Origin: a virus
Taxonomy: Duplodnaviria; Caudoviricetes
IMG/VR virus record: IMGVR_UViG_3300014205_000019
Span: 5,544 to 69,543 of that record
DNA: 64,000 nt
Direction: 5' to 3' (one strand)
Numbering within the stretch: position 1 is the stretch's first letter; the number at the start of each line of letters is the position of its first letter. The position numbers and the translations under genes were made by a program. This document shows positions 2,300-47,315 of this stretch, one piece after another. Under the pieces are notes generated by a model. That model did no database searches, was not told where the DNA came from, and saw only the letters and a list, made by a program, of their open reading frames with translations.

Positions 2300-2761
2300 T
2301 TATCCCTCCCCTTCGGGGAGAGCGGCCAACTCCTGCCGTACCTGCATTAGAATTTTGCCAAGTTTATTTTGGCCGACGCCACGACATACACCCCAATAGG
2401 TGTCGCCCCATGTGTTGCCCTCCACTAGTTCCTCATCGCCAGTCGCAATGAGTTTGGCTGCGAGGTCAGGATTCTGTACGAACTTGGCCCTCACAAACCC
2501 AAGCATGTAGTGGTCTTTGATGTTGTCCCAATTAGCCACCATCTTAACCCGCCTACCCAAACGCTTGGCCTCGCCCGGTGTGCGTGCCCTGATAATGGTA
2601 TGCGCATCACCCAAGTAAAGACACTTAGAGGCTTGGTAGGCGTGCTCGACAGTGGGATACACAGGCGAGGCGAACGTGGACTCCGTTTCCACACTCATAA
2701 CAAAAGGAGAGGGCCAGAAGTTTGAGAGCCAACGGTACTGTCCTTGAAACTGGTTAATCAT
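2300..2761 (-). CDS. NADAR (YbiA-like) family protein
   Basis: WLSNFWPSP, YPTVEHAYQASK, PGEAKRLGR, RAKFVQNPDL, LVEGNTWGDTYWG, GQNKLGKILM motifs. Confidence 0.92.
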   Translation of the reverse strand: MINQFQGQYRWLSNFWPSPFVMSVETESTFASPVYPTVEHAYQASKCLYLGDAHTIIRARTPGEAKRLGRRVKMVANWDNIKDHYMLGFVRAKFVQNPDLAAKLIATGDEELVEGNTWGDTYWGVCRGVGQNKLGKILMQVRQELAALPEGEG

Positions 2762-9202: not shown

Positions 9203-9277
9203 TGGTTCCAGCGACACGGAATCGAACCTGCTCAGACGGTTTAAAAGACCGCTATGCAACCTTTACATCACGCTGGA
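9203..9277 (-). tRNA. tRNA-Lys(TTT)
   Basis: Cloverleaf, CT-TTT-AA, ACCA. Confidence 0.92.
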
Positions 9278-9592: not shown

Positions 9593-9666
9593 TGGTGGGT
9601 TATCAGAGAATCGAACTCTGGTGGGCGTGGTAAGAGCACGCTAGTCTACCACTGACTTAATAACCC
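9593..9666 (-). tRNA. tRNA-Lys(CTT)
   Basis: Cloverleaf, CT-CTT-AC, ACCA. Confidence 0.93.
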
Positions 9667-9667
9667 G

Positions 9668-9755
9668 TGGTGCAAGGTGTAGGATTCGAACCTACGAAGC
9701 CTGTTAGAGCCTCGGTTTTACAGACCGCTTACTTTGTCCGCTTGTATAACCTTGC
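9668..9755 (-). tRNA. tRNA-Tyr(GTA)
   Basis: Long variable arm, CT-GTA-AA, ACCA. Confidence 0.93.
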
Positions 9756-9756
9756 G

Positions 9757-9831
9757 TGGTAGCCCCAACGGGACTCAAACCCGTTTCCAGAACTTGAAAG
9801 GTTCTTATCCTAATCCATAGACGATGGGGCC
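9757..9831 (-). tRNA. tRNA-Glu(TTC)
   Basis: Cloverleaf, CT-TTC-AA, ACCA. Confidence 0.92.
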
Positions 9832-10121
9832 ATGCGATTGAAAGTACGAACAGCGTGGCAGTTAGCACATACTATTTCGCACTTCATTAACTCATCCACC
9901 AGTTTGTCAAGTCCGACTCTGTGATAATGAGCAATGTTAAATTTCTTTTCACCTTTTACATGGTCGAACTGCATAGCGGCTTCGTGATATTGTACACCAC
10001 AATCCTTACAAGGCTTGTCTTTCCATGCTAAAACAACTTGGCGCAGTAGATTGGCCCGTTCGTATATCTGAGCCTTTCTCTTGTCCCTATTGTTTTGGTA
10101 ATAGGTCTGATTGTAATTCAT
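9810..10121 (-). CDS. HNH endonuclease 1 (homing-type)
   Basis: CKDCG...QFDH...CEIVCANCHAVRT; stop lies inside tRNA-Glu. Confidence 0.85.
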   Translation of the reverse strand: MNYNQTYYQNNRDKRKAQIYERANLLRQVVLAWKDKPCKDCGVQYHEAAMQFDHVKGEKKFNIAHYHRVGLDKLVDELMKCEIVCANCHAVRTFNRMAPSSMD

Positions 10122-10125
10122 CAGA

Positions 10126-10199
10126 TGGTACCCCTTGACAGAATCGAACTGCCGCTGGATGTGTGTAAAACATCTACACTACCATTATGTTAAAGGGGC
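10126..10199 (-). tRNA. tRNA-Val(TAC)
   Basis: Cloverleaf, TT-TAC-AC, ACCA. Confidence 0.92.
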
Positions 10200-10200
10200 T

Positions 10201-10233
10201 TGGCAGGAGGGACGGTGTTGGGCCCGCCCTCCT
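10201..10233 (-). ncRNA. 33-nt CCA-ended minihelix
   Basis: 7-bp AGGAGGG/CCCTCCT plus CGG/CCG, G discriminator, CCA; 1-nt spacers. Confidence 0.7.
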
Positions 10234-10234
10234 A

Positions 10235-10308
10235 TGGCTCCACATCAAGGAATCGAACCCTGATAGCAACGTTAACAGCGTCGCGTCTTACCGTTAGACG
10301 AATGTGGA
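10235..10308 (-). tRNA. tRNA-Asn(GTT)
   Basis: Cloverleaf, CT-GTT-AA, GCCA. Confidence 0.93.
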
Positions 10309-10309
10309 A

Positions 10310-10395
10310 TGGTACACCTAGAGGGACTCGAACCCCCATGAACTTTCGTTCGCTGCGTTCTAAGCGCAGTATGTCTGCCGTTTCATCATAGGTGC
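10310..10395 (-). tRNA. tRNA-Leu(TAG)
   Basis: Long variable arm, CT-TAG-AA, ACCA. Confidence 0.93.
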
Positions 10396-10396
10396 A

Positions 10397-10433
10397 TGGT
10401 GACCTGTCTACATTCTATTTCAAATGGTGGGCC
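10397..10433 (-). ncRNA. CCA-ended spacer RNA (weak local hairpin, strong long-range complement)
   Basis: GGCC/GGTC plus CATTT/GAATG stems, ACCA end, internal ACCA at 10425-10428. Confidence 0.45.
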
Positions 10434-10434
10434 G

Positions 10435-10509
10435 TGGTGCCGCCTGTGGGTATCGCGCCCACTACCTCTGGTTTTTCAGACCAGCGCTCTACTATTGTGC
10501 TAAGGCGGC
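10435..10509 (-). tRNA. tRNA-Phe(GAA) with non-canonical T-loop
   Basis: CT-GAA-AA; T-loop CGCGATA; D-loop without GG; ACCA. Confidence 0.88.
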
Positions 10510-10557
10510 TTAGATAGGTCAGGCAAATTCCGTGGAGTTCGCCCGACCCACTAACTT

Positions 10558-10583
10558 TGGAGCCAGAGGATTCGGATTCTGGC
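10558..10583 (-). ncRNA. 26-nt CCA-ended microhelix
   Basis: GCCAGA-ATCCGAATCC-TCTGGC, U discriminator, CCA. Confidence 0.7.
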
Positions 10584-10584
10584 A

Positions 10585-10672
10585 TGGTGTCAATGAGGGG
10601 ACTCGAACCCCTACGCGCCGTGGGCGCACTACGTTCTCAGCGTAGCCTGTTTGCCAATTACAGCACATCGAC
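10585..10672 (-). tRNA. tRNA-Leu(GAG)
   Basis: Long variable arm, CT-GAG-AA, ACCA. Confidence 0.93.
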
Positions 10673-10746
10673 TGGTCAGGGTAGGGAGAATCGAACTCCC
10701 GTCTTACCGTTCCAAGCGGCATACGTTACCACTACACTATACCCTG
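10673..10746 (-). tRNA. tRNA-Pro(TGG)
   Basis: Cloverleaf, CT-TGG-AA, ACCA. Confidence 0.93.
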
Positions 10747-10747
10747 A

Positions 10748-10804
10748 TGGTGCCGCCCTTGGGGATTTGCTATTCGCACCCCTACAGCCTTGGAGACGGG
10801 CGAC
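10748..10804 (-). ncRNA. 57-nt mini-tRNA without anticodon arm
   Basis: 7-bp GTCGCCC/GGGCGGC, tiny hairpin, GGGG/CCCC arm, ACCA. Confidence 0.7.
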
Positions 10805-10805
10805 A

Positions 10806-10891
10806 TGGCGGACTCTGTGAGATTCGAACTCACGGGGCTTGCACCCACTAGTTTAGCAAACTAGGTCGTTAAACCACTCCGACAAGAATCC
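10806..10891 (-). tRNA. tRNA-Ser(GCT)
   Basis: Long variable arm, TT-GCT-AA, GCCA. Confidence 0.93.
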
Positions 10892-10892
10892 G

Positions 10893-10927
10893 TGGTGGGC
10901 CTGCCTCATGTTGATTGCTGCAAGCCC
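10893..10927 (-). ncRNA. 35-nt CCA-ended minihelix
   Basis: GGGCTTGC/GCAGGCCC stem, ACCA, 1-nt spacers. Confidence 0.7.
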
Positions 10928-10928
10928 G

Positions 10929-10961
10929 TGGTGGCCCCTCCCGTATAAAGCGCGAGAGGCC
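10929..10961 (-). ncRNA. 33-nt CCA-ended minihelix
   Basis: GGCCTCTC/GAGGGGCC plus CG/CG, 7-nt loop CTTTATA, ACCA. Confidence 0.7.
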
Positions 10962-10962
10962 G

Positions 10963-11038
10963 TGGTGACGCATAGGGGATTCGAACCCCTGACTTCTACC
11001 TTGAGAGGGTAGCGTCCTAACCGCTAGACGAATGCGCC
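10963..11038 (-). tRNA. tRNA-Glu(CTC)
   Basis: Cloverleaf, CT-CTC-AA, ACCA. Confidence 0.93.
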
Positions 11039-11040
11039 AT

Positions 11041-11139
11041 AGAAGGAAGGGAGAGTGTGGATATTGTTTGGCAATATCGCGGCCCACCCTCTGCCTCTTC
11101 CCTCCGTGGGGGTTCCGAGTCCGCATCTCTTGGCTCGGT
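11041..11139 (-). ncRNA. Putative structured leader RNA (long irregular hairpin)
   Basis: GATATTG/CAATATC apical stem, purine/pyrimidine outer stem, 5' CCGAG/CTCGG hairpin; starts right after the promoter. Confidence 0.4.
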
Positions 11140-11145
11140 CTTACA

Positions 11146-11174
11146 ATTATAGCACAATGACAACTAGTTGTCAA
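11146..11174 (-). promoter_or_regulatory. Internal consensus sigma70 promoter with overlapping 16-bp palindrome
   Basis: TTGACA-N17-TATAAT with TG; TGACAACTAGTTGTCA at 11158-11173. Confidence 0.88.
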
Positions 11175-11194
11175 GTACCCTTGTAAGTTTATTT

Positions 11195-11269
11195 TGGTAC
11201 CCATATCAGGACTCGAACCTGACTTCTATCTTTAGGAGAGATAGGTAATATCCACTATACTATATGGGC
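11195..11269 (-). tRNA. tRNA-Arg(CCT)
   Basis: Cloverleaf, CT-CCT-AA, ACCA. Confidence 0.9.
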
Positions 11270-11484
11270 GGGTGACAGGAACACATACAATCAAAGTTTC
11301 TACACTGTTGGTGGAACCACGAACGTGTGGCTCTGTAGTCTAGGGCACACAATACTGAAAGAGTTGTGTTGGGGCCTAATTTATTCAGCATACTCTTTTG
11401 TGTGAGACTAAGAGAGTTTTCTACTCTACAATCTTTTGTGTGGCCCGACCCAACAGGTAGGTGACACGAGATGCAGTTTTCCAT
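11260..11484 (-). CDS. Cys-rich small protein, CxNF[DE]CxCxCH family member 1
   Basis: C-terminal QCRNFDCMCSCH; stop inside tRNA-Arg(CCT). Confidence 0.7.
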   Translation of the reverse strand: MENCISCHLPVGSGHTKDCRVENSLSLTQKSMLNKLGPNTTLSVLCALDYRATRSWFHQQCRNFDCMCSCHPPI

Positions 11485-11501
11485 AGGTATCCTTTCGAAT
11501 A

Positions 11502-11587
11502 TGGCGGAAAGGGCGAGAGTCGAACTCGCAAGGCTTACGCTCGTCCGTTTTCAAGACGGGTTCCGTTGCCAATCGGATAACCTTTCC
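11502..11587 (-). tRNA. tRNA-Ser(TGA)
   Basis: Long variable arm, CT-TGA-AA, GCCA. Confidence 0.93.
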
Positions 11588-11588
11588 G

Positions 11589-11630
11589 TGGTGGGGTACC
11601 CGGCGTCACTCGGGAGACTTTCTTTACCCC
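11589..11630 (-). ncRNA. 42-nt three-way mini-tRNA
   Basis: GGGGTA/TACCCC, AGA-AAG-TCT mini-hairpin, CCCG-8nt-CGGG arm, ACCA. Confidence 0.7.
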
Positions 11631-11631
11631 G

Positions 11632-11706
11632 TGGTGCCCTCGTTGGGAATCGAACCCAAACCTCAACCTTCGCAGGGTTGCATCGTATCCGTTGGACTAC
11701 GAGGAC
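11632..11706 (-). tRNA. tRNA-Arg(GCG)
   Basis: CAACC-CT-GCG-AA-GGTTG, ACCA. Confidence 0.9.
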
Positions 11707-11951
11707 TGTTCGTGACAACTACATTCACAATCAAAATTCTTACAAAAGTAGTGAGCAGTCCTGTAGTTTTCTGAAACATAATCAAAAATGTTTCCGGGAT
11801 GTGTACAAGCCTTACTAACTAATTTGTTAAGCCAATTGAAATCTTCTCCACTTTCAGGACAGTTTACGAAATGATAAAAGTTATGTCCTTTGTGTACTCT
11901 CTGTTTACAAACGTCGCAAACTACATAACCGTCGCTGGTTTCTCGTGGCAT
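11697..11951 (-). CDS. Cys-rich small protein, family member 2
   Basis: FCKNFDCECSCH; ATG at 11951; stop inside tRNA-Arg(GCG). Confidence 0.72.
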   Translation of the reverse strand: MPRETSDGYVVCDVCKQRVHKGHNFYHFVNCPESGEDFNWLNKLVSKACTHPGNIFDYVSENYRTAHYFCKNFDCECSCHEQSS

Positions 11952-11966
11952 GGTGTGACCTTTCAC
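11951..11966 (-). ncRNA. 16-nt CCA-ended tetraloop hairpin carrying the SD of the next ORF
   Basis: GTGA-AAGG-TCAC-ACCA; the last A is the A of the ATG. Confidence 0.5.
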
Positions 11967-11967
11967 A

Positions 11968-12043
11968 TGGAGCAGGATATGGGAATCGAACCCATTACCT
12001 CTTCTTTACCAAAGAAGTGTTCGTCCGTATGAACTTAACCTGC
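11968..12043 (-). tRNA. tRNA-Thr(GGT)
   Basis: TT-GGT-AA, TCCA. Confidence 0.9.
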
Positions 12044-12184
12044 ATTCTTCTTATGACACCGACAGCCGCAATCAAAATTTGCACACTTACTGTGGAACTC
12101 CTGAATTCGCGGGTCGGCCGACATAGTTGCATGGAAGCAATATCCGCTTTTAAGAGTGTTTAATTCTTCTCTTATAGTCGTCAT
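12035..12184 (-). CDS. Cys-rich small protein, family member 3 (49 aa, not in ORF track)
   Basis: Hand-translated MTTIREELNTLKSGYCFH...KCANFDCGCRCHKKNAG*; stop inside tRNA-Thr. Confidence 0.72.
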   Translation of the reverse strand: MTTIREELNTLKSGYCFHATMSADPRIQEFHSKCANFDCGCRCHKKNAG

Positions 12185-12327
12185 TATGATGCGTGACATT
12201 TACACTGACACTCGAAGTTTGCACACTTTCTGTGTAAGTCGGCAGCCACGCGTAAATGTTGGGCCGACTCTGCTGCATAGCAGTAACGTGATAGAACCTC
12301 ATTATACATATTAAATATGTTTCCCAT
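12184..12327 (-). CDS. Cys-rich small protein, family member 4 (47 aa)
   Basis: MGNIFNMY...YCY...KCANFECQCKCHAS*; TAATG coupling to member 3. Confidence 0.72.
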   Translation of the reverse strand: MGNIFNMYNEVLSRYCYAAESAQHLRVAADLHRKCANFECQCKCHAS

Positions 12328-12330
12328 AGT

Positions 12331-12344
12331 TGGTACCTTTCGGT
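12331..12344 (-). ncRNA. 14-nt CCA-ended GAAA-tetraloop hairpin carrying an SD
   Basis: ACC-GAAA-GGT-ACCA then ACT ATG. Confidence 0.45.
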
Positions 12345-12345
12345 A

Positions 12346-12420
12346 TGGTAGCCCCTGTAGGAATCGAACCCACATCACAACGTTCGAAGCGTCGCGTCGT
12401 ATCCATTAGACTAAGGGGCC
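12346..12420 (-). tRNA. tRNA-Arg(TCG)
   Basis: CT-TCG-AA, ACCA. Confidence 0.92.
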
Positions 12421-12429
12421 AAGGTGCCC

Positions 12430-12774
12430 TTAACGGGCTAGTTGGGCTGTGCTTAGAATGGCTAGAACGGTTTGCCACTCGGTATTACCATAAAGTGTAT
12501 CATCAATTAAAACTGCTGTGGCTGTATGTAAACCATCGAGGGTTTGGTCGTCCTCAAAAAATGGAGCATGTGATATGCCAGAACCCGATAGGTGAAATAG
12601 TAGTTTAGACATTTGTTGAGTATTACCACCCTCTACAATCACGAGGGTCTTGTGTTCTTTGGCCCATTTACGCGCCTTCTTGTCTTTGAGTAAGATTTCG
12701 GCTACGGCGTGTGCCGCCTGAATACCCTTTTGCATCGTTGAAAGATGCGAGTGAACAACTACATAGAGTTTCAA
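12430..12774 (-). CDS. Peptidyl-tRNA hydrolase 2 (PTH2)-like protein
   Basis: KLYVVVHSHLSTMQKGIQAAHAVAE resembles the PTH2 N-terminal motif (K-x-A-Q-x-x-H-A); later TLVIV and HTATAV segments; 114 aa. Confidence 0.7.
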   Translation of the reverse strand: MKLYVVVHSHLSTMQKGIQAAHAVAEILLKDKKARKWAKEHKTLVIVEGGNTQQMSKLLFHLSGSGISHAPFFEDDQTLDGLHTATAVLIDDTLYGNTEWQTVLAILSTAQLAR

Positions 12775-12857
12775 CTTCTATTCCTTATCTCGCAGGCACA
12801 AAAATTACACTCTCTTGCGTGTAAAAGGTGACCACATTTACAAAGTCGAACTAGCAT
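12771..12857 (-). CDS. 28-aa Zn-finger-like peptide
   Basis: Hand-translated MLVRLCKCGHLLHARECNFCACEIRNRS*; SD GAAAGGAG. Confidence 0.55.
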   Translation of the reverse strand: MLVRLCKCGHLLHARECNFCACEIRNRS

Positions 12858-12861
12858 AGTT

Positions 12862-12879
12862 TGGTGCTCCTTTCTAAGC
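12862..12879 (-). ncRNA. 18-nt CCA-ended hairpin carrying an SD
   Basis: GCTT-AGAAAG-GAGC-ACCA then AACT ATG. Confidence 0.45.
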
Positions 12880-12880
12880 A

Positions 12881-12965
12881 TGGTACAGCCTACGGGATTC
12901 GAACCCGTACTCCGTTAGGAACCAATTTTTAAGATTGGCGTGTCTACCGATTTCACCACGGCTGC
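12881..12965 (-). tRNA. tRNA-Leu(TAA)
   Basis: Long variable arm, CT-TAA-AA, ACCA. Confidence 0.93.
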
Positions 12966-12966
12966 A

Positions 12967-13010
12967 TGGTGGGACGCTCCGGGCAAATTCGGAGAAGCAC
13001 TCTTCATCCC
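12967..13010 (-). ncRNA. 44-nt three-way mini-tRNA
   Basis: GGGATG/CGTCCC, AAG-AGTG-CTT mini-hairpin, CTCCG-8nt-CGGAG arm, ACCA. Confidence 0.7.
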
Positions 13011-13011
13011 G

Positions 13012-13097
13012 TGGCGGACAGGGGGAGATTCGAACTCCCGACCCTTTCGGGTACTACTTTTCCAGAGGAGCGCACTAGACCACTATGCGACCTGTCC
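13012..13097 (-). tRNA. tRNA-Ser(GGA)
   Basis: Long variable arm, CT-GGA-AA, GCCA. Confidence 0.9.
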
Positions 13098-13448
13098 TTG
13101 TCTACGATTAAATGTTCTTATAGCATGACAATTAGCACATACTATCTCACATTTACTAATTTCTAAGAGAATTCTTTTCCAACTTATATTGGTGGTAATC
13201 CCTCTACTTATGTTGAATACTTTATCTTCTCCAATGTGATCAAACTGCATGACCGCATAATGGTATTGTACTCCACAATCAGTACAAGGAACTTCCTTTA
13301 ATTTCCTAATAAAATTACTTCTTTGGTCGTATCGTTCGAAGAAGTAATTTTTTCTACAAGATTTGCACCAAGATTGTTTTGTTCCTGTTTTCTTTTTGAA
13401 AAAGTTTATTTCTGGTAAGTGTTGGTCACATTTAGAACAGTAAAACAT
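13083..13448 (-). CDS. HNH endonuclease 2 with N-terminal Zn finger
   Basis: CSKC...WCKSC, CTDCG...QFDH...CEIVCANCHAIRT; ATG 13448 after AAAGGAG; stop inside tRNA-Ser. Confidence 0.85.
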   Translation of the reverse strand: MFYCSKCDQHLPEINFFKKKTGTKQSWCKSCRKNYFFERYDQRSNFIRKLKEVPCTDCGVQYHYAVMQFDHIGEDKVFNISRGITTNISWKRILLEISKCEIVCANCHAIRTFNRRQGQVA

Positions 13449-13463
13449 TTTGCTCCTTTGTGA

Positions 13464-13540
13464 TGGTACGGGTAGGGGGATTCGAACCCGCCACTCTTTC
13501 GCATATAAGGCGATGGCATTAACCGTCATGCTATACCCGC
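13464..13540 (-). tRNA. tRNA-Ile(TAT)
   Basis: TCGC-CT-TAT-AT-GCGA, ACCA. Confidence 0.85.
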
Positions 13541-13541
13541 G

Positions 13542-13600
13542 TGGGGCCGGTAGCAGGGACTCGCACCCTTGTATCTAGAACACTACTACTTTGTACCGGC
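13542..13600 (-). ncRNA. 59-nt mini-tRNA with acceptor and T arm, no anticodon arm
   Basis: GCCGGTA/TACCGGC, AGGG-TGCGAGT-CCCT, C discriminator, CCA. Confidence 0.7.
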
Positions 13601-13601
13601 A

Positions 13602-13676
13602 TGGTGGAGACTACGGGAATCGAACCCGTGATTCTTCTTTGCAAGAGAAGTGTGTTACCTCTAGCACTAAGTCCCC
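13602..13676 (-). tRNA. tRNA-Ala(TGC)
   Basis: CT-TGC-AA, G3:U70, ACCA. Confidence 0.94.
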
Positions 13677-13801
13677 GAAGCCCTACCAACCCGGAGGTAG
13701 TAGGGAAGAGTTTGTTGCCAACCTAACAGCAGGCCATTACGCCGCCATTTAAAGGATTCTGGTTTGCTGGCTCTCCCAATCCTTTTTCGATTGTAATTAC
13801 T

Positions 13802-14172
13802 GCAATGATGCTTAATAGCCCGGATTCTGTCAGGCCCGGTATGTAACGACGTAATTACTCGTCTCCCTGCTGGCCTGTACTGACATCTCCCTCACAACGG
13901 AATACCATCCCCGTCGTGGCCTGCGTCTAAAGCATGGCTGCCCCCTACCATATTTGGGGTTACTCGCCCGCTCCTGTACCCCGTTTCACTCGGCAAGCAA
14001 TAAGCCGATATCGTCACTGTTGGCAGGAACTCTTGCCCTTGCTAGTGGGCAGGCCGACCTTATTAGAGTCGAGCGGTTTTACATGGGTACCACCCCATGT
14101 GCGAGGCCGGAACTTGTTCCTCTATAATGTTTACCTTGCGGAACATTACAGCGTCAGAGTCCACATCATTAC
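13802..14172 (-). ncRNA. rnpB: RNase P RNA (bacterial-type ribozyme), about 371 nt
   Basis: P1 GTAATGATGT/GCATCATTGC; P2 CTGAC/GTCAG; P3 GTAATGTT/AACATTAT; P4 5' GAGGAACAAGTTCCGG (14107-14122) and 3' ACAGAATCCGGGCTA (13816-13830); GTGAAACG and CAAATA landmarks in the expected order. Confidence 0.8.
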
Positions 14173-14181
14173 TATTTGGTA

Positions 14182-14197
14182 TGGTGTCCTTGCGGAC
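14182..14197 (-). ncRNA. 16-nt CCA-ended GNRA hairpin just before the RNase P RNA
   Basis: GTCC-GCAA-GGAC-ACCA, followed by a second TACCA. Confidence 0.55.
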
Positions 14198-14198
14198 G

Positions 14199-14275
14199 TG
14201 GTGCTTGTCGTGGGATTCGAACCCACACTGTTACGTTTTTGAGACGTATCCCTCTGCCAATTGGAGTACACAAGC
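14199..14275 (-). tRNA. tRNA-Leu(CAA) with short variable loop
   Basis: TACGT-CT-CAA-AA-ACGTA, 5-nt variable region, ACCA. Confidence 0.85.
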
Positions 14276-14276
14276 A

Positions 14277-14352
14277 TGGTAGTCGCTACTGGATTCGAAC
14301 CAGTTTATCACGCTTATGAGACGTGCATCTTAACCCTGTTGATTCAGCGACC
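14277..14352 (-). tRNA. tRNA-Met(CAT), elongator (Ile2 not excluded)
   Basis: CT-CAT-AA, paired 1:72, ACCA. Confidence 0.85.
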
Positions 14353-14353
14353 G

Positions 14354-14423
14354 TGGTGCGAGTTGCTAGTCCGATTCGAACGGACGTATGTGCGACATAC
14401 CTACCTTGATTATGTAGCAACTC
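14354..14423 (-). ncRNA. 70-nt tRNA-like RNA with 9-bp acceptor and collapsed anticodon loop
   Basis: GAGTTGCTA/TAGCAACTC, GTATGT-CGC-ACATAC, GTCCG-TTCGAAT-CGGAC, GCACCA. Confidence 0.7.
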
Positions 14424-14521
14424 ATTCAATCTCTGTACTTTACTTCACCCACTCGACCAGCAGGTACCCTTAAATACTGGTTGTCTTAGCAGAGGACTGT
14501 ATTTCTGACCAGAGACTGAAT
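14424..14521 (-). ncRNA. Putative ~100-nt multibranch RNA without CCA
   Basis: 12-bp closing stem ATTCAGTCTCTG/CAGAGATTGAAT with inner ACCAG/CTGGT stem. Confidence 0.4.
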
Positions 14522-14525
14522 AGAG

Positions 14526-14553
14526 TGGCGAGAGTGTGCCCTCGTCAACTCGC
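14526..14553 (-). ncRNA. 28-nt CCA-ended microhelix
   Basis: GCGAGT/ACTCTC stem with one mismatch, GCCA end. Confidence 0.5.
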
Positions 14554-14554
14554 A

Positions 14555-14644
14555 TGGAAGATAGGGTGGGATTCGAACCCACGGAGCAAATCAATGCTCT
14601 CTCGTTTTCGAGACGAGTGCCGTAAGCCGCTTGGCTACCTATCC
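14555..14644 (-). tRNA. tRNA-Ser(CGA)
   Basis: Long variable arm, CT-CGA-AA, TCCA. Confidence 0.92.
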
Positions 14645-14645
14645 G

Positions 14646-14726
14646 TGGTTGGTGTCCTTGAAGAAGCCCGTCAGTAGATTATTTCTTCATTAGTCTACTG
14701 TTCTCACGTCACGGGACAATAAGGAC
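14646..14726 (-). ncRNA. 81-nt rod-like RNA ending ACCAACCA
   Basis: GTCCTT/AAGGAC, CCGT/ACGG and CAGTAGA/TCTACTG stems. Confidence 0.6.
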
Positions 14727-14727
14727 A

Positions 14728-14802
14728 TGGTTGAGGAAGTAGGATTCGAACCCACACCGTTTCGGTTCAAAGCCGAAAGACCTACCGTTAGTCTATTCCT
14801 CA
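14728..14802 (-). tRNA. tRNA-Gln(TTG)
   Basis: CT-TTG-AA, ACCA. Confidence 0.93.
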
Positions 14803-14803
14803 A

Positions 14804-14879
14804 TGGGGCGGAGTACGGGAATCGAACCCGCATTTACCGGGTCACAGCCGGTCGCTTGTACCAATAAGTTAACTCCACC
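14804..14879 (-). tRNA. tRNA-His(GTG)
   Basis: CT-GTG-AC, G-1:C73, CCA. Confidence 0.93.
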
Positions 14880-15152: not shown

Positions 15153-15226
15153 TGGAGCATCATGCCGGTGCTGCCCCGGCGACCTCTGCTTGGAAGGCAG
15201 ATACGTTTCTGTTACGCCAATGATGC
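15153..15226 (-). tRNA. tRNA-Gly(TCC) with remodelled elbow
   Basis: CT-TCC-AA; T-loop GGCAGCA; D-loop without GG; U73 CCA. Confidence 0.85.
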
Positions 15227-15561: not shown

Positions 15562-15590
15562 ATTATATCATATTTTGGAAGTTTTGTCAA
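15562..15590 (-). promoter_or_regulatory. Consensus sigma70 promoter
   Basis: TTGACA-N17-TATAAT with TG; ATG 8 nt after the -10 box. Confidence 0.88.
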
Positions 15591-15711: not shown

Positions 15712-16020
15712 CTATCGGTCGTCGGACTCGTATTCTTCTTGCGAGTCGTCTTGCCTGTAGTATTCTTGCTTGCCATGCGTGAACCTCCGTGCCCTGCGAA
15801 CCGCCTCGGGAGGGGCTAGGGCCAGCACCTCGACAGGGAGGGCTTCCGTTCTCCCCTTCGGGGAGGGTGTCGCCTCCTGCTCGGTCAAATAACGGTGTCG
15901 CCCACAACTTATGCAGACGATTTTGTCCTCCGAGTGGATGCGCCCCATGCCCTGCCCGTATACAATATACCCGGCTTGGTATTCAAGGAACCCACCACAA
16001 TGTTCTCGGGGACACTTCAT
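15712..16020 (-). CDS. Zn-ribbon protein with acidic tail
   Basis: CPREHCGG...CISCGR. Confidence 0.6.
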   Translation of the reverse strand: MKCPREHCGGFLEYQAGYIVYGQGMGRIHSEDKIVCISCGRHRYLTEQEATPSPKGRTEALPVEVLALAPPEAVRRARRFTHGKQEYYRQDDSQEEYESDDR

Positions 16021-16461: not shown

Positions 16462-16490
16462 ATTATACCACTTTCTTCATTCATTGTCAA
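16462..16490 (-). promoter_or_regulatory. Consensus sigma70 promoter at the head of the tRNA array
   Basis: TTGACA-N17-TATAAT with TG. Confidence 0.88.
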
Positions 16491-16718: not shown

Positions 16719-16747
16719 TTGACAAACACCGCCTTTCGTGGTATGAT
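16719..16747 (+). promoter_or_regulatory. Rightward sigma70 promoter (packaging/virion module)
   Basis: TTGACA-N17-TATGAT with TG. Confidence 0.8.
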
Positions 16748-16774
16748 TATACCATATCGTACTTTCTTTGTCAA
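16746..16774 (-). promoter_or_regulatory. Leftward sigma70 promoter overlapping the rightward one
   Basis: TTGACA-N17-TATAAT with TG. Confidence 0.85.
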
Positions 16775-22974: not shown

Positions 22975-25900
22975 ATGACAAATTTCTTAAACCCACTGGA
23001 AAACGTAGAGCGTGCCGTAACACGGGCAGCGGATTCTGTTCGACAGTATACGGAACAGGAACCTTCTGACGTTCAGCCTTCTATGCCACCAGCGCCGCCC
23101 CCTTCTCTTCAAGAGTCTATGAATAGATTCCGTGAAGTAGATAGGGGTATTTCTATTGAGAAAAGTCAGGCTGTTGCTCGTGAATCTGTGGAGCGAGCGC
23201 CGGTTATTCCTAAGCCTGTCACTTCTACTTATGAGGGACTAGCGCAGCCAGAAATGGTTGACGCCGACTACGACCGTGCCGTGACTGGATTCCGTCGCAA
23301 TGTTGATTCATACTTTGGTTCGCGCTTTGCCGCTGGTGAAACGATGCGACAGGCCGTGGATGCTATTGTTGGTCGAGAGCCTACTACAATTCCTACTAGT
23401 GAGAAGATTGAAATTCGCGATGCGCTTGATAAGACTCCCGCTCGTACAGCCATGCGCCAGTTCTCTAACGAGATTTGGCAGCAGATTGGTATGCAGAATC
23501 AGAACCTGTTCCTTGGTATTGCGTTGCAGCAGGCCGAGCAGTTTGGTGATGTGTCTGTTACTCAGTATCAAAACAAGGTAGCCAGCGATGCGGGCCGCGC
23601 AGAAATCTTTGCTAACCTACTAGACTTTGTAATTACTACACCGGATAGCGCGTCGCCTTATCTCATTGAGTTCTATGAATCTCTTGGAGTTGTATCAAAG
23701 AGAGAAGTTACTGAACAAAGTCCAGCGCCTTCCTTTACTCCGAAGTATTCTAAGATTCCGGTATTTGGTAAGCACATCGACAAGGTACTTGAAACAATCA
23801 ACGCAGGTATACCCGTAGTTACCTTTGACCTAGCCGTGGCGGGCCTCCTTGATAGGGAGGAAATGTCCACCAGTCAGATTGTACGCGAACGAACACTCAT
23901 GCTCTTCTCTGTTAAGGATGCTATCAATCAATCCATTCGTGGACTTGAAACCGATGCTGAAAAGATTGAGGCGTTCAAGGGACAGTATGTTCACATTGAT
24001 GGACGCTACACTACTACTGAAAATCCAGTAATCCAGACTATGCAGACAGAGGAAATTACCACACTTCGTGGTCTTACTCCTGAACTCTCTAAGATGCCCA
24101 TTGATACGTTCCTTGCGGCTCTGACAGTACCGGCCAACTCTATTGAGAGACAGCGCCGCTCTGACATGAGCATTCAGGAACGCTACCGCTATGGCCTACT
24201 AACCGAAGCCGAGCGTACTTGGTTCGACTTGGGCATTACTGAGGCCACCATGAAGGTGCTCTCTGAGTATCTTGTTATCAGTCCTAAGAACCAAACTCTT
24301 GACCGTATTAAGTATGCGGGCGAAGTTAAGCAGCAGCAGATTGACGAAGCGCGAATCCGCGAGTATCTATTCAGCACCGCTGAGGGACGAGAGGCTCCCG
24401 GTGTGGGAGAGGGTAACTGGACTACAGTTCTACCTAAGGGTATGATTACTTCTAACATTTCTCCTGAGTTCCTTTATGAAATGGGATTCAGTGAGGAAGC
24501 CATTAAGGATATGGTAGGAGAGGGATTCAAGGTACCAGTTATTGGGGGTCTTATGAACTTTGCTGGTGACTTGTTCTCCGGCTTTGGTCTGTTAGATGCG
24601 TGGCACGACCACGATGCAGAGTCCTTCCTTAATGACCCAACAAAGCCTGTACGACTAACAACGGTTTGGGATAGTGTTCTTTCACTTGACAACAACGAAG
24701 AACATCTTGATGTTAATGGACAGTTGGCAGCCATTCAAAAGACCTTTAATGAAAAGACCAATCCTGACTTCTTGCCCGGTGGCAAGTATCGCACTCGCTT
24801 AACTGAAATCTATCAGTCACCTTATACTTCGCCGGAGCAGCGCAACCTCATTGAAGATATTGCAGCAGACTTTGAAAATGTCGAACTCAATCAGTGGACT
24901 AATCAGTACGAGAACCCCGGCATCAAGATGTTTGTTGACTTGATTGATGCTGGTAAGTCCGTAGAGGAAGCCATCGAAGAAGTCTCTAGTTGGCGCAGCC
25001 TTGTGACTCGAACAGCCCTCGGACTTGACATGCAGTTGATGCCGCTTGGTGGACTTGTGCGAAAGGGCGGTAACGCTGCCTTCCGTGCTATCCGTGGTAT
25101 CCCTCAGTTTGAAGTAGAGGGACGCGGCATCATCGAAGGACTGCGCGCTGGTCAGGTATTGACTAGAGCCGACGACGACTTTGCCGAAGTTCTTGGCGAG
25201 TTGTCTGTGCGTCGTATGCAGGTTGAGAGTATGCTTGGTAACGAGTACGAGATAGCCGAAGTTATTACTACTGGCTCTACTCGCGGACTAGGTGTGCAGA
25301 GAGTAGCGGGACTTGCGGAAGATACTGTTATTCCTCTTAATCGTACCAAGATTCGAATGCTCGAAGATGAGTTGGCCGAAATTGACCGCATCCTTGATTC
25401 AACCGAAGATACAATCCGAGTTCAGAAGGACATCTTTAATCCTCGCACAACGCCACGCGCTATCTACACCGGAGACTCTATCTCTGACGTGTTCCAGATT
25501 TATGCGCCGATTCGTCGTGTAATCAAGCAGCGCACCAGTGCATCGCTTCCTATTGGACGCGCGGCTATGAGTCAGGTGGACGAGGGTGCTACACTAACAG
25601 AAAGAATTCTTTCTGGTACGGCTCTAAGAAACAAAGAGTTCTCTCAGAGAGCCTCAGTAGTTTCCTATGCTTTCTCGGTAACAGATGAATTCTCACAGAT
25701 GCTTAGGAAGATTCCGCTTTCTCGATACAACATTGAGACAGGCGGAAAGGACTTAATCCTTGACCTTAAGCAGTTTATTACTGACCTTGCTACTGTAGGC
25801 AAAACTGATAACGCTCGACCCTTCTTGGCTAAGTACAACACTCATAAGTATGAGACAGAGCGCTTCTTCCAGACAGCCGAACTCGTTGGAAACGAGGTAG

Positions 25901-28900
25901 CGACTGGAGCCTTCAAGACTCTACGCGACGACGTAGTTATCATCACTGACCCTGAGCAGTTCAAGAAGGCGACCGATAAGATTCGTCTTGAAGCAACACG
26001 CCTTGCCACAAAGAATGGACGTGTAGATTACAAGAAGGCTCAGGAAATCTTCAAGGAGCGAATGAGTTTGCTCTATCGCTCCGAGGATGAGTTCTTCGCT
26101 CACTTCATTACGGAGTTTAACTCTTATGTAACAGAAGCCGTGTCTCAGCGTATTCTTGGTAAGTCTTGGAACAAACTGGACGAGACTGGAAAGGCCACAC
26201 AGAACATTGGCGTTGCTATGCAGGTTCAGAACAAGTTGGCTGGCGCACTCTCGCTAATGATGTTGGAGTCGCCGGGCTTCGTTATCCGTAACGTTATCAA
26301 CAACTTTACTGTATCTACACTGGATGGCATCATGCCGTGGCAGTTGTTCTCACCATTCGGACACCCTAAGTATTTTGATAAGTATGATGAACTCTTTGGC
26401 TCTATCAACCCCCTTACCTACGGCTTCTCGCCTAAGGGTTTGGGTCAGGCCGAGATTAACGAACTTCGAGAGACGTTGGCCTCTTCGCTCTTCACAAAGA
26501 ACCCTATGGGTGGAGGTATTCCATTCGTTGGTGGTTTGCCATACATGACCTTCCGTAAGGCATCGGCCCACTTCGAGGCTGTTACCCGTATGCGTATCAC
26601 ACAGAAGGAAGCCGTTCGAGTAATGGAGCAGTTGTGGACACCGGAGAACATGGTGACGGCGCTCAACAAACTAGACCCACAGGCAGCAGCCCTCTTTAAT
26701 AAGTTGGCAGCAAGTGGGCCAGACACCGCAGCCTTCCGTGAGAATCTATTCCGCGCGCTTACTGACCACACGCACAGTTCAACTGCAAGTCTCTTCTACT
26801 ACATTGACCAGTTGGAGGATGGTACTGCTATCTTCGTGGCCTCAAAGCACCCTGCTCGAATTGCAGAGGAACTAGGTTTCCACGTACCACATCTTAACAA
26901 GGATGCTCTTGGCGAGTTCCAAGATGTTCTTGATTCCTTTGACCCTAATCTTCTTGGTAAGGGAATTGCCAACTCCATTGAGAATAGTTACCTCAACTCC
27001 GTTAAGGTCTTGGGCGAGGCAGGACGACAGTTCGGTATTCCTAAGGAAGCCGTTAGCGACATACTAGAAGTTCACTCAACACTCTATGCCGCTGCACTTG
27101 GTTCTGGCCTTCCACCTAAGGAAGCCTCAGACCTTGCTTTGTCTATTGCGGCTAACTCAACCATGCGTATTCGTGGACTCTACGAGCGCAACGAGGTTCT
27201 TCTTAAGTACATCGACAACCCTGAGTTGTACCGCGACGCCTACTTCCCTTACGTAAAGGGACTGGGAATGACCAACAGGCAACTAGAAGAGATGGTAACT
27301 ATCCCATCTACACCACAGATTAACCGCAAGGAAATCTTGGATATGCTCACCGAAGAGGATGAAGCCCTCGGCTGGAAGGCTGCCAATGAAATCATTGATG
27401 AGGCTCGCAAACTTCCATCGTTTGGTGGACAGGATAGCGGTATCATTATTCGCCGTACCGTGGATAACCTAAGCACCCTTCGCCGTGCTGCTACACAATC
27501 GCAGCGCAAGACGTTGCGTGCCGACATTGATAAGGCTAAGGACGCCTTCATCGCTAAGCATCAGGCCGAGTTTGTGAACCACAATAGATGGACACCGGCT
27601 CAGGTAGACGCTTATCTTGACGATAAGATTCTTGCCTTCGCTGAAATTGGCGACACTTCCATTGCCCTCACTGGTAATCCAAACTCGGTATTCATGAAGG
27701 TGTACCTTAAGGGCGCACGTCCTGCCGATGTACGTCGTGCAATCGACCGTGCTATTGACAACGGCACATTACAGAACAAGGTGTTCCGTACCAACACCGG
27801 AAAGCGCAACACGCGAACCGTTGTTGTTCGACGACACAGTGGCTTCGGCGACCGTATGGAAGATGCGAAGTCCATCAAGGTTACAGACGATAAGTTGCGA
27901 CAGGCTGTATCCGCCGACAAGGATATCTTCCCATCTACACCGCGCAATGCGCTTGGTGAAGGATTGGGTACTCCTGCTCTACGTGCAACCTTCGAAGAGT
28001 TTGTTAAGGACATTACCGAACTTGCTAATAGAGTAAGCCAGCAGAAGGTTGCTGGTGCTGCTGGTGATATTCGCAAACTACATCAGACACTTAACCTTTC
28101 TCGCCAGCAGACAATGGCTGAACTGCGCCGTGCTATTGTGCGAGAAACAGAAGAGGGCAATCTAGATGTTGGTCGATTGATTGAGATTGCCAACGAGCGT
28201 CTCAACCGCTTTGCTCGTACATCTAAGGAGCGCATGAACGTTGTTACAGACTCGCTCGGCCTGCAGGCTGCACCGCTTGACGGCGACCGTGAGGCTAAGA
28301 TGCTTGCACGTACCATTGGTGAGAACACTACAGACTCCTTTACACAACTTGTAAGTGAGCAGGCACCAACGGTGGCCTTCTTCAAGAAGATGTACGAAAG
28401 AGCCAGCAGCCGGGAAGGTTCACAGTCTCTATCCGAGGCCGGACAGGAAGCCTATGACGCAATCCGCAATGCCGTTTTCGAATGGAACGCTGAGGGTGCG
28501 CGTGTTCTAGGACACCCATTCGTTCGTTCTATTTCCCGCGAGGTTGACCTTGATGAGTTGGCCGACATGACTAAGGTTCCTCCTGCGATTGTTCGTCGTT
28601 GGAAGAGCCAACTCGACTCCTCTAATGAAGCAGCAATTGAGTGGGCTAAGAGTGTTCAGCCTTATCCAACATTCCGTCCTAAGGGATGGAACAAGAGCGT
28701 TGAGGTTGTCTCCCACTTCAATGAGAACGCAGTAGTGGCAAACATTCCTGAGGGTGTTAATGTAGCACCTGCTAATATCGGCATGGCCCCTGAGCCTTCG
28801 CTTACTGGTAACCTACCAGCATCGGGTGTAATGGGTCACGTATTCTACCAGCGCCCACCTGAGGGTTTCTTTGCAGTTATCACAGAGGGCGACGAGTGGG

Positions 28901-31900
28901 CTTCAATTGTGCCTAGTGTTAAGAAGCAGTCTCGTTATGGTACACACTTTGCAATCTTCATTCGCAAGGGAACTCCCGAGAAGGAAGTTGAAGAGGCAGT
29001 ACGCGCTCTCGCCAAGGAACACTACGACGCCTTGCTTGACCCTAAGCAGACTGCAACTGCCAAGGCTACTGGCCGCATGGCTCTAGAGAAGAACCCTCGT
29101 GGTTTCTACGCCTCGTACCAGATTGAGTCGCCAGTTGAGGCTACTCGTAAGTTGGCGCCGTTCGTAGCAAAGGCGGAACAGGGAGACATGGTTGCTAAGG
29201 CTCTAGTACAGAATGCCCGCTACCAGTGGCTTCGCGGTTGGCCTATCTCTGGCGACCAGCGCCGCTCACTTGACGATGCCTACAATACCTTCAAGCGAAG
29301 TTTCTCTGAGGCTGCGCCGGTCGGCCCTTACCTAACTAAGTTGACTCCACAGGAAGCCGGTACACTACGTCGTGGTGTAGAGACGCTCATCCGTGAGAAG
29401 AATCAGGTTATGGATTTTGGTATGGCACTTGGTCAGGCTCGCGCCGACTTCATACTACACAACTATAACAATGTTAACGACATTGACTTCATTCTTCGAT
29501 GGCTCGGCCCGTGGCACATTTGGCCTACTCGTACTATGGGTAAGTTGTTTACTCGTGTAGTGGACAACCCTCACTGGTACGTGGGCTACAAGGCCTTCGA
29601 GACGGCCCTCGAACTTCTTAACGAGGAACTGCCCGACTATATGAAGAACACGCTCCCAATTGATTTCCTCTTGGGTGCGCTTGCGCTACCACTCAAGGCA
29701 GCAGGTATTGACACCAGCGGCTTCTCGGGCGGCTCACTTAACGTAGGCTCGGTACTCTTCTACAACGACCTCATCGGCCAGTACCAGAGTGCGGGCGAGG
29801 GTGCGACAGGATTGGGCGAGGGCTATGACGCCATTGACGACTTCATTCCTATGAACCCTATGTTCGGTTGGGGCTTGAACCTTACCGGACAGATGGGTCA
29901 GAAGGACTTGAGTTTGATTCCTGACCAGTTGATTCGACCGGCTGAAATGATTACACAACTTGGCGCCGAGTTGACGGCTTGGACTGGAAGCGGCCTGACC
30001 TCTCAGATTATTATGTCTGATAGAGACATCCGTGATGTTAACAATGAGTTTGCTGCTTCTATTATGGCAGCAGGTGAGAAGGGCGGTACTGACCCTAAGC
30101 AGAATCCTGAACTTGCGGCCCTTATCGAAGCCTTCGATGAGTGGGGACGTATGAGTAAGGACGGTATCTACATGCCGCTCTTGCAGCAATTGGGCGCACA
30201 ACTCGGTATTGACCAAGCCATGAACCCTATCCTCGTTTCTACTATGGTGCGCGCTTCTCGAAACCGTACCGTTGCCAACGCTACGTCCTATCTTGGTGGA
30301 CACCGACTCACACTTCGTGACGGCGACCAGCAGGCTGTATTCGCAGCAATGGAGGACATGCGCGATGTTCTTGGTGCAAACTACGAAACCGATGTAGAGC
30401 GTAGCAAGGCTATCTCTAACTGGTTCAAGGACAATCCTGCCGTGTCTGTATACCTTCGAAACGGTAAGGAAACAAACGACCTTAACGCACTTGCTCAGAC
30501 AGAGGCATTGTTCTTTGGTGGACTGGCCGAGGTCAGCGCTTGGTTCGACGAAGAGTATGCTAAGTTGCCAGCAGTTGGCTCTAACATTTCCGAGGAAGAT
30601 ACCGCTACTGCCTACACGCGATTGCAGTTGGAACGCGATGCACGCATTGCGGCTCTTGGTGCTGGCGTTTACGCCTACACAGGTATCGACCCACGCTCTG
30701 ACCGCAACTTCGATATCCAGTACCGCATTAGCCAGCCAGAAATGGTTGACCTACTAGAGCGATACAACATGGAAGAGGTTGTACCGATGGTATACGCCTT
30801 TGGCAGTTACCGTGGTGAAGAGACTCCTATCCTTCCGAACATCGACCTCATTGCTGCTGGCTCTGCAAAGGATGCCCTCATTGCTGAGGTTGAGAAGTTT
30901 GCCAAGGAAACCGGCGTAGGTGCTGAGTTCGTAACAGTTGGTCAGATTAACAGGGGCCGCGTGATGTCTCAGGTAACGTCCATTATTCTTGACACGCAGG
31001 CTGCAATTAATATGCCTCAGTTCTACAAGAAGAAGGACGGCGCTTTCACTAACGCAGTTGACGTTGACACCTTCTTCGACAATCAGGAAAAGGTATTGGC
31101 CGAGTTGCCAAAAACCTACCGTGATTTGTACAACGAGTTCATGGCACGTTCGCTCTCACCTGAGCAGGCCATTGACAAGGCCATCAATGAGTGGGCAGCA
31201 CGTACTGTGCGCGAACACGGTAACGCTACGAATGCGTGGAGCCAGAGCGATAGGTCAACTGACCTCGCCGCTACACTTGCGCGTATCGAGAAGGCTTACA
31301 AGCCACCTACTCCTAAGGACATTGCAACTCTCTTGGATGAAATGACAGGAGGCTTGTGGCGCAACAACACCGATATAACACAGAGCGAACTCGACGAACT
31401 TATTCAGGTACGTCTTGATAATGCGGCGCGCATTGGTGACCTCAACACAATCCTTACGGCTAAGTACGAGGACAACATTGGTGCCCTCAGTGCTGGACTA
31501 GGACGACTTGAATCCCTCCGCAGCGAGCCAGACTCACCAGAAGTGCGTGCTCAAATCCGCGACCTTACAGGTTACGAGGACGAGAACGGCGTATGGGTAC
31601 CGGGCGAACTACGACACTTCACTACTCCAAGTGGTGTAGTTATTACTACTGCCGAGGAACTCTCTGAATTCCGTGAGGCATATGAGTTTAATCAGGAACT
31701 GCAGAAGTTGCACGATGCCGACATTCACATTCGTCTAGACTCAGAGCAGTTCGAGACTTGGAGTAAATACTTCAACAAGGAGCACTCATACGACTCTAGC
31801 GTTTCTAAGTTCCTTAACTACTTGAAGGAGACGAAGCAATGGCAGTTGTTCGACGCCGCTGTTAACCACTTCTATCCTGACAAGGAAGCCGGTGCCTTTG

Positions 31901-46153: not shown

Positions 46154-46730
46154 AAATTAACTCCTTAAACTTATTCAGGTGGCCCTGAGTGATTGGCTTC
46201 TCTGCCCCGTTGCGAAGTAGATAGGCTGGATGATATAGGGGCATGATGAACACCGGGTCTGTTTCGTTCCAGTAGGCTTTACGTACTGCACCCTGAATTC
46301 GTCCCATAGTCATGCCATCCATAGGAATAAACTTAGATGTACTAAACTTGCCTAAGGTAATAATACCCTTAGGCTTAATTAGGTTTAACTGGACGTTGAG
46401 CCACTCATCACAGGCATCAAGCGCAAACTGTGGCGGGTTGGGATTACCCTCACCCGGCCAACACTTAATCATATTAGTTACGTAGGTGTCGGCCCGTGAA
46501 ATGCCAGCAGTAGATAGCATCTCATTAAGCAGGGTGCCCGACCGTCCATAGAAAGGCCGACCACTTGAGTTCTCTTGAGCGCCCGGTGCCTCGCCAATAA
46601 TCATAATGTCTGCGTTAACTGGCCCCTCACCCGGTACGGCAAAGGCCCGATTCATGTACAGACTACAATCGGTGCAGAGGCCGATACGCTGATGAAGGAC
46701 AGTTAAGTCGAAGGCGGGGTCATTCGCCAT
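46146..46730 (-). CDS. Uracil-DNA glycosylase, family 4
   Basis: CTDCSL, GEGPVNADIMIIGEAPG, GRPFYG, TNMIKC, YHPAYLLR. Confidence 0.93.
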   Translation of the reverse strand: MANDPAFDLTVLHQRIGLCTDCSLYMNRAFAVPGEGPVNADIMIIGEAPGAQENSSGRPFYGRSGTLLNEMLSTAGISRADTYVTNMIKCWPGEGNPNPPQFALDACDEWLNVQLNLIKPKGIITLGKFSTSKFIPMDGMTMGRIQGAVRKAYWNETDPVFIMPLYHPAYLLRNGAEKPITQGHLNKFKELIYD

Positions 46731-47314: not shown

Positions 47315-47315
47315 T

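Follow-up and report, generated by a model that had tools for sequence, protein, structure and literature searches.

Which described systems come closest to very small, cysteine-rich proteins encoded among the transfer RNA (tRNA) genes of a phage? Com of phage Mu, Ogr of P2 and Delta of P4 are phage proteins of 60-80 amino acids (aa) with Cys/His metal sites, each acting on one specific target. Bacterial metallothioneins of the SmtA/BmtA type are likewise small and carry C-x-C and C-x-C-H elements, binding zinc through Cys and His, and Rpp21/Rpr2 of archaea and eukaryotes is a small zinc-ribbon protein that works with ribonuclease P (RNase P) RNA. As to the genomic setting, the T5-family phage SP15 keeps small accessory open reading frames (ORFs) and tRNAs in one region, and both aid its escape from a tRNA-cleaving defence (bioRxiv 10.1101/2023.03.15.532788). 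Here we describe four micro-protein genes, ORF1 to ORF4, which lie on the minus strand among the tRNA genes of a phage of the Caudoviricetes. The window analysed is a stretch of 64,000 nucleotides (nt) covering bases 5544-69543 of the 69,543-base-pair (bp) IMG/VR virus record IMGVR_UViG_3300014205_000019. The four ORFs are genuine genes under purifying selection and constitute an orphan family.

A degenerate DNA form of the motif C-x-N-F-[DE]-C-x-C-x-C-H has four matches in the window and none in 100 shuffles, and inspection of the ORFs finds the four C-terminal motifs on the minus strand exactly as a previous sequence-only reading of this DNA had quoted them: CRNFDCMCSCH in ORF1 (74 aa, 11260-11484), CKNFDCECSCH in ORF2 (84 aa from its ATG, 11697-11951, with an alternative GTG at 11966), CANFDCGCRCH in ORF3 (49 aa, 12035-12184/12199) and CANFECQCKCH in ORF4 (47 aa from its ATG, 12184-12327). 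Searched with a profile of the four, the rest of the 69.5-kilobase (kb) genome yields no other copy. The most plausible starts are the ATG codons at 11484, 11951, 12184 and 12327, respectively; an alternative GTG for ORF4, at 12378, would overlap tRNA-Arg(TCG). GAAAGG or AAAGGA precedes the starts of ORF1, ORF2 and ORF4 by 5-9 nt (AAAGGA 5 nt ahead of the ATG in ORF1, GAAAGG 9 nt ahead in ORF4), and with these ATG starts the sizes of 47-84 aa given by the previous reading hold. In TAATG, the ATG of ORF3 overlaps the stop codon of ORF4, as is usual in translationally coupled genes.

Evidence for selection comes from a relative found by scanning metagenomes with the DNA motif. This 4.6-kb contig, L007, carries 24 tRNAs in an order matching window positions 9593-14878, and the phage that it represents is present in two other assemblies. 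It has copies of the family in the slots of ORF1, ORF2 and ORF4 and lacks ORF3 as well as tRNA-Arg(CCT); several insertions and deletions at tRNA borders distinguish the two phages. Synonymous change between positional orthologues has reached saturation (pS 0.76-1.0), whereas pN is 0.39-0.44. Nonetheless, eight residues are invariant at exact spacing across all seven copies, four from the window and three from L007. For the invariant Ser the copies use AGT, AGC, TCA, TCG or TCT, and for each of the invariant Cys, Asn and His both available codons. Such codon switching on a background of synonymous saturation is not what a conserved RNA or DNA element would leave behind, and shows selection on the amino acids.

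The four window copies share the invariant core S-x2-C-x(12-17)-H-x2-C-x-N-F-[DE]-C-x-C-x-C-H, which in the alignment of all seven sequences reads S-x2-C-x(12-17)-H-x2-C-x-N-[FM]-[DE]-C-x-C-x-C-H, the Phe being replaced by Met in L007 copy 2. The sequence-only reading had noted another Cys about 18 residues upstream and a His or Tyr before the motif; the Cys is indeed there, at 16-21 residues before the first motif Cys, and the residue ahead of the motif is an invariant His (H-x2-C) and never Tyr. It had also called the N-termini unrelated. They do vary; however, ORF1, ORF2 and L007 copies 2 and 4, that is four of the seven copies, share a CCHC knuckle of the form C-x2-C-x(5-7)-H-x(2-3)-C, while ORF3 and ORF4 consist of the core only. 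This knuckle is present in ORF1 and missing from its L007 partner, and missing from ORF4 and present in its partner, so that positional orthologues differ in it and the N-termini are modular. The core itself offers five Cys and two His, one ligand fewer than two four-ligand sites would need, and thus suggests either a single site with ligands to spare or a cluster of two metals that share a thiolate or the [DE] carboxylate. Core identity is 30-45% for any pair, except for ORF2 and its L007 orthologue (19/36), and on this alignment the paralogues are old. Their isoelectric points (pI) of 5.4-8.6 are near-neutral, which argues against general RNA binding.

Is the module confined to tRNA arrays? 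Without the Phe and with the H-x2 element, the motif relaxes to H-x2-C-x-N-x-[DE]-C-x-C-x-C-H, whose information content equals that of the first. This pattern is found at six IMG/VR loci, in three other phage protein families, and its reversed-order control at none. At L031 the motif forms the C-terminus of a 51-57-aa protein amid a run of small cysteine-rich ORFs of early type; at L030 and L035 it precedes a double zinc ribbon in a protein of about 130-141 aa; and at L032-L034 it belongs to multi-cysteine proteins of 324-404 aa, the gene at L032, the one mapped locus of the three, lying a few kb from the terminase gene. In all six a Cys stands 4-7 residues ahead of the His, so that the full ligand set is retained, and the proposed phage module, eight fixed residues plus the upstream Cys, is present in 7/7 tRNA-array copies and these six loci. 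The L031 motif region aligns with the family profile at 93% probability in hhalign, and within it ORF2 has 10 of 15 residues in common with L031. The motif of the L030-L035 proteins is covered by neither a Pfam nor a PHROG model, and the motif-bearing proteins of these loci have no relatives in cultured phages or the PDB. The five motif-bearing phage records that were checked, three of them rated complete, have no or one tRNA each. Since the motif recurs in such phages, the module is not tied to tRNA arrays and, on motif matches, is a recurrent, unannotated phage unit. We also observed that at L031 (2081-2477, minus strand, in an unrelated 42-kb phage) the motif micro-protein and the next ORF both end in a similar H-G-E-R-H tail, within a run of about ten small cysteine-rich ORFs.

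The previous reading did not recognise the family, and neither Pfam, PHROGs, NCBIfam and PADLOC nor the large protein collections contain a match that would identify it. The four family databases give scattered matches only (E>0.002), none common to the members, with no PADLOC-DB family for any of the seven. In a word-indexed search of 5.8 billion proteins, query A1 had no match and query A3 retrieved only the three proteins of L007 itself; the 'longer' length class of this collection gave no match, nor did a full hidden Markov model (HMM) scan of 1.84 billion representatives. PDB sequence profiles held nothing relevant, and the ESM Atlas no usable match. At the DNA level, the strict Phe-containing motif has no match in IMG/VR and one real relative in metagenomes, L007, nine other loci being devoid of the H-x2 element and of tRNAs; a motif scan of GTDB genomes returned five matches, all chance-like. 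Literature on the motif and on small cysteine-rich ORFs in phage tRNA clusters yielded nothing pertinent. Individual candidates were rejected as well. Descent from an HNH endonuclease finds 0.5% probability in hhalign against the phage's own HNH genes and no PHROG HNH match. For zf-CCHC (PF00098), the knuckle has the spacing C-x2-C-x(5-7)-H-x(2-3)-C and no Pfam match at E<=5; bacterial metallothionein (PF02069) gives no Pfam match; and the same is true of the RNase P protein subunits RnpA and Rpr2/Rpp21, with the pI range of the micro-proteins not being strongly basic.

The genes occupy slots between tRNA genes, as the sequence-only reading had said for Arg and Thr tRNAs, with a Ser tRNA to be added. 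ORF1 lies between tRNA-Ser(TGA) and tRNA-Arg(CCT) (11195-11269), ORF2 between tRNA-Thr(GGT) (11968-12043) and tRNA-Arg(GCG) (11632-11706), and ORF4 with ORF3 between tRNA-Arg(TCG) (12346-12420), which is directly upstream of ORF4, and tRNA-Thr(GGT); genes and tRNAs alike are on the minus strand. ORF1, ORF2 and ORF3 each end inside the next tRNA, their stop codons lying 10, 10 and 9 nt into tRNA-Arg(CCT), tRNA-Arg(GCG) and tRNA-Thr(GGT), respectively. At the other end, ORF4, ORF2 and ORF1 are each preceded by a hairpin containing the ribosome-binding site: at 12331-12345, with GAAAGG, after tRNA-Arg(TCG), at 11952-11967 directly after tRNA-Thr(GGT), and at 11487-11501 directly after tRNA-Ser(TGA), all on the minus strand. 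These hairpins begin one base past the CCA of the upstream tRNA and are short (4-5 bp) and weak (-2 to -4 kcal/mol). They are retained in L007 with changed stem sequences and the same design, and several genes of the operon are preceded by hairpins of this kind.

The source record has direct terminal repeats and is rated complete at 69.5 kb. ARAGORN predicts 36 tRNA genes, every one on the minus strand, between 8891 and 16354; two extra tRNA-like Rfam matches, at 9207-9277 and 15156-15226 (minus strand; 33.3 and 44.7 bits), have no ARAGORN call. Four perfect promoters of the form TTGACA-17-TGnTATAAT face the array on the minus strand (16746-16774, 16462-16490, 15562-15590 and 11146-11174), and the sole minus-strand terminator predicted in the region, at 8852-8838, lies past the last tRNA. 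Promoters facing one way and a single terminator behind the last tRNA make the array look like a strong host-polymerase operon, presumably read early in infection. The sigma-70 promoter at 15562-15590 is the nearest perfect one upstream of the micro-protein genes and the likely driver of their operon segment; between it and the genes, on the shared strand, there is neither a consensus-grade promoter nor a predicted terminator. The next perfect one, at 11146-11174, follows shortly after the gene group and is kept in L007. On the plus strand there is a near-perfect divergent promoter (16719-16747), and the structural genes, including those for terminase and major capsid protein, run in the opposite direction from 16988. 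No cultured phage has a major capsid protein more than 28% identical to that of this phage, the top matches being Sporosarcina, Clostridium and Bacillus phages; these matches, the class B type of the RNase P-like RNA and the strong GAAAGG ribosome-binding sites suggest a host among the Bacillota.

The array holds further genes. An RNase P class B-like RNA at 13811-14166 (minus strand) matches Rfam RF00011 with 48.9 bits (E 4e-11), under the gathering score of 97; three HNH endonuclease genes belong to PHROG 2255/3106; and a PTH2-type peptidyl-tRNA hydrolase is encoded at 12430-12774 on the minus strand (Pfam PF01981, E 4e-6; PHROG 3668) and kept in L007 with 42% identity. In IMG/VR, neither this PTH2 nor the phage's terminase has close relatives; distant PTH2 genes are found in jumbo phages (L018-L024), and the PTH2 alignment reached only such unrelated jumbo phages, in which the motif is missing. 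Next to the PTH2 gene, a cysteine-rich ORF of 28 aa (36/28 aa by start; 12771-12857/12881, minus strand) starts with MLVRLCKCGH and contains ECNFCAC. It has its own hairpin with a ribosome-binding site, and in TTGA its stop codon overlaps with the TTG that starts PTH2; considered as a possible fifth member, it received no score from the family HMM. L007 does not have this ORF, its PTH2 beginning with ATG right after the hairpin. A 44-nt spacer between tRNA-Ser(TGA) and tRNA-Arg(GCG) (11588-11631, minus strand) contains an acceptor-like stem ending in ACCA and is deleted in L007, and a 102-aa ORF between tRNA groups (15712-16020, minus strand) has a zinc-ribbon-like N-terminus, C-x4-C...C-x2-C, and no Pfam match. 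Outside the array, the early region of the window has further small cysteine-rich ORFs in addition to a NADAR-domain protein (2300-2761, minus strand; PF08719, E 1e-32); the NADAR family reverses DarT-type ADP-ribosylation, and this protein may be an ADP-ribosylation-reversing anti-defence enzyme. An Rv2179c-like 3'-5' exoribonuclease domain (46703-47536, minus strand; PF16473, E 2e-31) could trim tRNA 3' ends in this phage with its RNase P-like RNA. One ORF of 3277 aa lies amid the structural genes (22975-32808, plus strand).

What can be concluded about the role of the micro-proteins? We favour, while granting it somewhat less than an even chance, a function in host takeover or anti-defence, as early binding proteins stabilised by zinc. 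Host RNA polymerase would make them early, from the strong-promoter operon of the tRNAs. The Cys5His2 core, in some copies together with the CCHC knuckle, would fold a chain of 45 residues into a rigid knob, on which the poorly conserved residues around the core would provide a separate binding surface for each paralogue. By analogy with small cysteine-rich early phage proteins, they may then bind host (or phage) macromolecules stoichiometrically. On this view they lie among tRNAs because the operon is modular and prone to insertion at tRNA borders, where the HNH genes, PTH2 and the 28-aa ORF are likewise slotted in, and not because of a task specific to tRNA. The other small cysteine-rich ORFs and the NADAR-domain protein in the window's early region fit this view, as do the small cysteine-rich neighbours of the L031 micro-protein and, in a T5-family phage, anti-defence genes located beside tRNA genes (bioRxiv 10.1101/2023.03.15.532788). 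Several points weigh against this proposal. Early expression and a binding-protein function are properties that we infer, as is metal binding (most likely of zinc), for which the basis is the ligand pattern. No sequence or structural relative with a known function was found in the searches above: AlphaFold2 models from 4- and 7-row alignments reach a predicted local distance difference test (pLDDT) score of 49 and 55 and are unreliable, and Foldseek on the better one returned nothing, as expected from a model of such quality. Homology to the other motif-bearing proteins is limited to about 20 residues. Finally, the array slots are conserved between two phages saturated at synonymous sites, and the ribosome-binding site and stop of three genes adjoin or enter tRNAs; both could signal a tie to tRNA maturation.

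Such a tie is the substance of an alternative that we consider unlikely, in which the micro-proteins are cofactors or regulators of tRNA maturation, with tRNA precursors, a processing enzyme or the phage RNase P-like RNA as binding partners. Processing would in turn gate their synthesis, since the stop codon would be lost once RNase P cuts at the downstream tRNA and a hairpin abutting the upstream tRNA contains the ribosome-binding site. The phage supplies a fitting context with its RNase P class B-like RNA, PTH2 and Rv2179c-like exoribonuclease, and the stops of three genes 9-10 nt within the next tRNA, the slot positions conserved in L007 and the hairpins kept there despite altered stems are all as this model would have them, as is the ligand order C-C-H-C of the N-terminal knuckle, which resembles that of RNA-binding zinc knuckles. 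However, the near-neutral pI is unlike that of known RNase P proteins and of most RNA chaperones, and in Pfam neither RnpA, Rpr2/Rpp21 nor zf-CCHC is matched. The HNH genes of the array overlap tRNAs too, pointing to general compaction; L007 copy 1 ends ahead of a promoter, not a tRNA; and the motif is found in phages with no or one tRNA.

The sequence-only reading had proposed inhibitors of tRNA-targeting defences. In this alternative, each paralogue would counter a different host nuclease, be it an anticodon nuclease or a tRNA-cleaving abortive-infection effector. It draws on the co-location, and presumably co-expression, with a near-complete tRNA set, and on the diversification of paralogues on a fixed scaffold. 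Precedents exist in the T5 family, where anti-defence genes stand beside rescuing tRNAs (bioRxiv 10.1101/2023.03.15.532788), and two further papers describe phage tRNAs that counter tRNA nucleases (PMC10264068, PMC11464382). The micro-proteins, however, show no similarity to known anti-defence or defence proteins, and no sequence feature indicates nuclease targets. Moreover, the motif occurs in three other phage protein families, with 0-1 tRNAs in the five records checked. Relatives outside tRNA regions are what the sequence-only reading had itself named as speaking against its idea, which is thereby weakened, and we regard it as quite unlikely. A more specific proposal draws on both tRNA-related alternatives: the Cys5His2 unit would be an undescribed phage metal-binding fold, amplified in the tRNA operon, that acts on tRNA maturation, by partnering the RNase P RNA of the phage, or on host defences directed at tRNA. 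With a ribosome-binding site bordering on the upstream tRNA and a stop that falls within the downstream one, these proteins would be made only from tRNA precursors that have yet to be processed. We would give this proposal only a small chance.

Sequence-specific, nucleic-acid-binding regulators of phage translation or transcription, comparable to Mu Com and P2 Ogr, are a further possibility of similarly low probability. Such proteins might, for instance, open the ribosome-binding-site hairpins that precede several genes of the operon, and both the size and the Cys/His content of the micro-proteins are typical of small phage zinc-finger regulators; at L030 and L035 the module is, in addition, fused to a double zinc ribbon. 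Against this, the net charge is near-neutral, Pfam has no match to Com, Ogr/Delta or other zinc-finger families, and the hairpins are so weak that no helper is needed to open them. That the protein products are irrelevant, the ORFs being spacers, cis-acting translated leaders for tRNA folding or processing, or decaying remnants of mobile elements, is suggested by their tight fit against tRNAs with stops inside, by a dynamic array with insertions and deletions at tRNA borders and by the homing-type HNH genes within it, but is made highly improbable by the eight residues that stay invariant over seven copies despite saturated synonymous change and switches of the Ser codon family, by the 0.5% hhalign result against these HNH genes and by the conservation of the motif in proteins of other phages.

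If zinc-stabilised early binding proteins are indeed what these genes encode, a new, compact Cys5His2 metal-binding module, absent from current domain and structure libraries, would join the known small proteins of phages, and the locus would offer four natural variants of one scaffold for studying how phage micro-proteins choose their targets. If they are ordinary early binders, the main lesson would be that short genes packed among tRNAs can escape gene callers and protein databases. The surrounding operon is more remarkable than the four genes: with 36-38 tRNAs, an RNase P-like RNA and PTH2 in a 69.5-kb genome, it is unusually self-sufficient, and the function of the four genes inside it would be part of how the phage takes over or insulates translation.

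How, then, do the micro-proteins compare with the systems described so far? Mu Com and P2 Ogr/P4 Delta have four-ligand sites of the C-x2-C type with other spacings, and Pfam has no match to the micro-proteins. SmtA/BmtA metallothioneins are much denser in Cys and lack the N-F-[DE] element. As to Rpp21/Rpr2, an RNase P-like RNA is encoded 1.4 kb from the micro-protein genes; Rpp21 differs in being strongly basic, as opposed to near-neutral, and in its C-x2-C...C-x2-C ribbon. The CCHC zinc knuckle of retroviral nucleocapsid (PF00098) shares with four of the seven copies the Cys-Cys-His-Cys order and the C-x2-C start; its spacing is C-x2-C-x4-H-x4-C, however, and the micro-protein module is dispensable, three copies doing without it. 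In SP15, Rad is a protein of 189 aa with a primase/TOPRIM-like domain and has no sequence relation to the micro-proteins (bioRxiv 10.1101/2023.03.15.532788). The motif proteins of the other phage loci have an identical spacing of H-x2-C-x-N-x-[DE]-C-x-C-x-C-H and a Cys upstream of the His; that of L031 is also tiny and carries the motif at its C-terminus. They differ in a first loop of 4-7 residues, compared with 12-17 in the micro-proteins; some are multi-zinc-finger proteins of 141-404 aa, and none is encoded in a tRNA array. Small cysteine-rich phage proteins are already a familiar kind; judged from sequence, the family described here is a new one among proteins and its small Cys5His2 module is new at the level of the motif.

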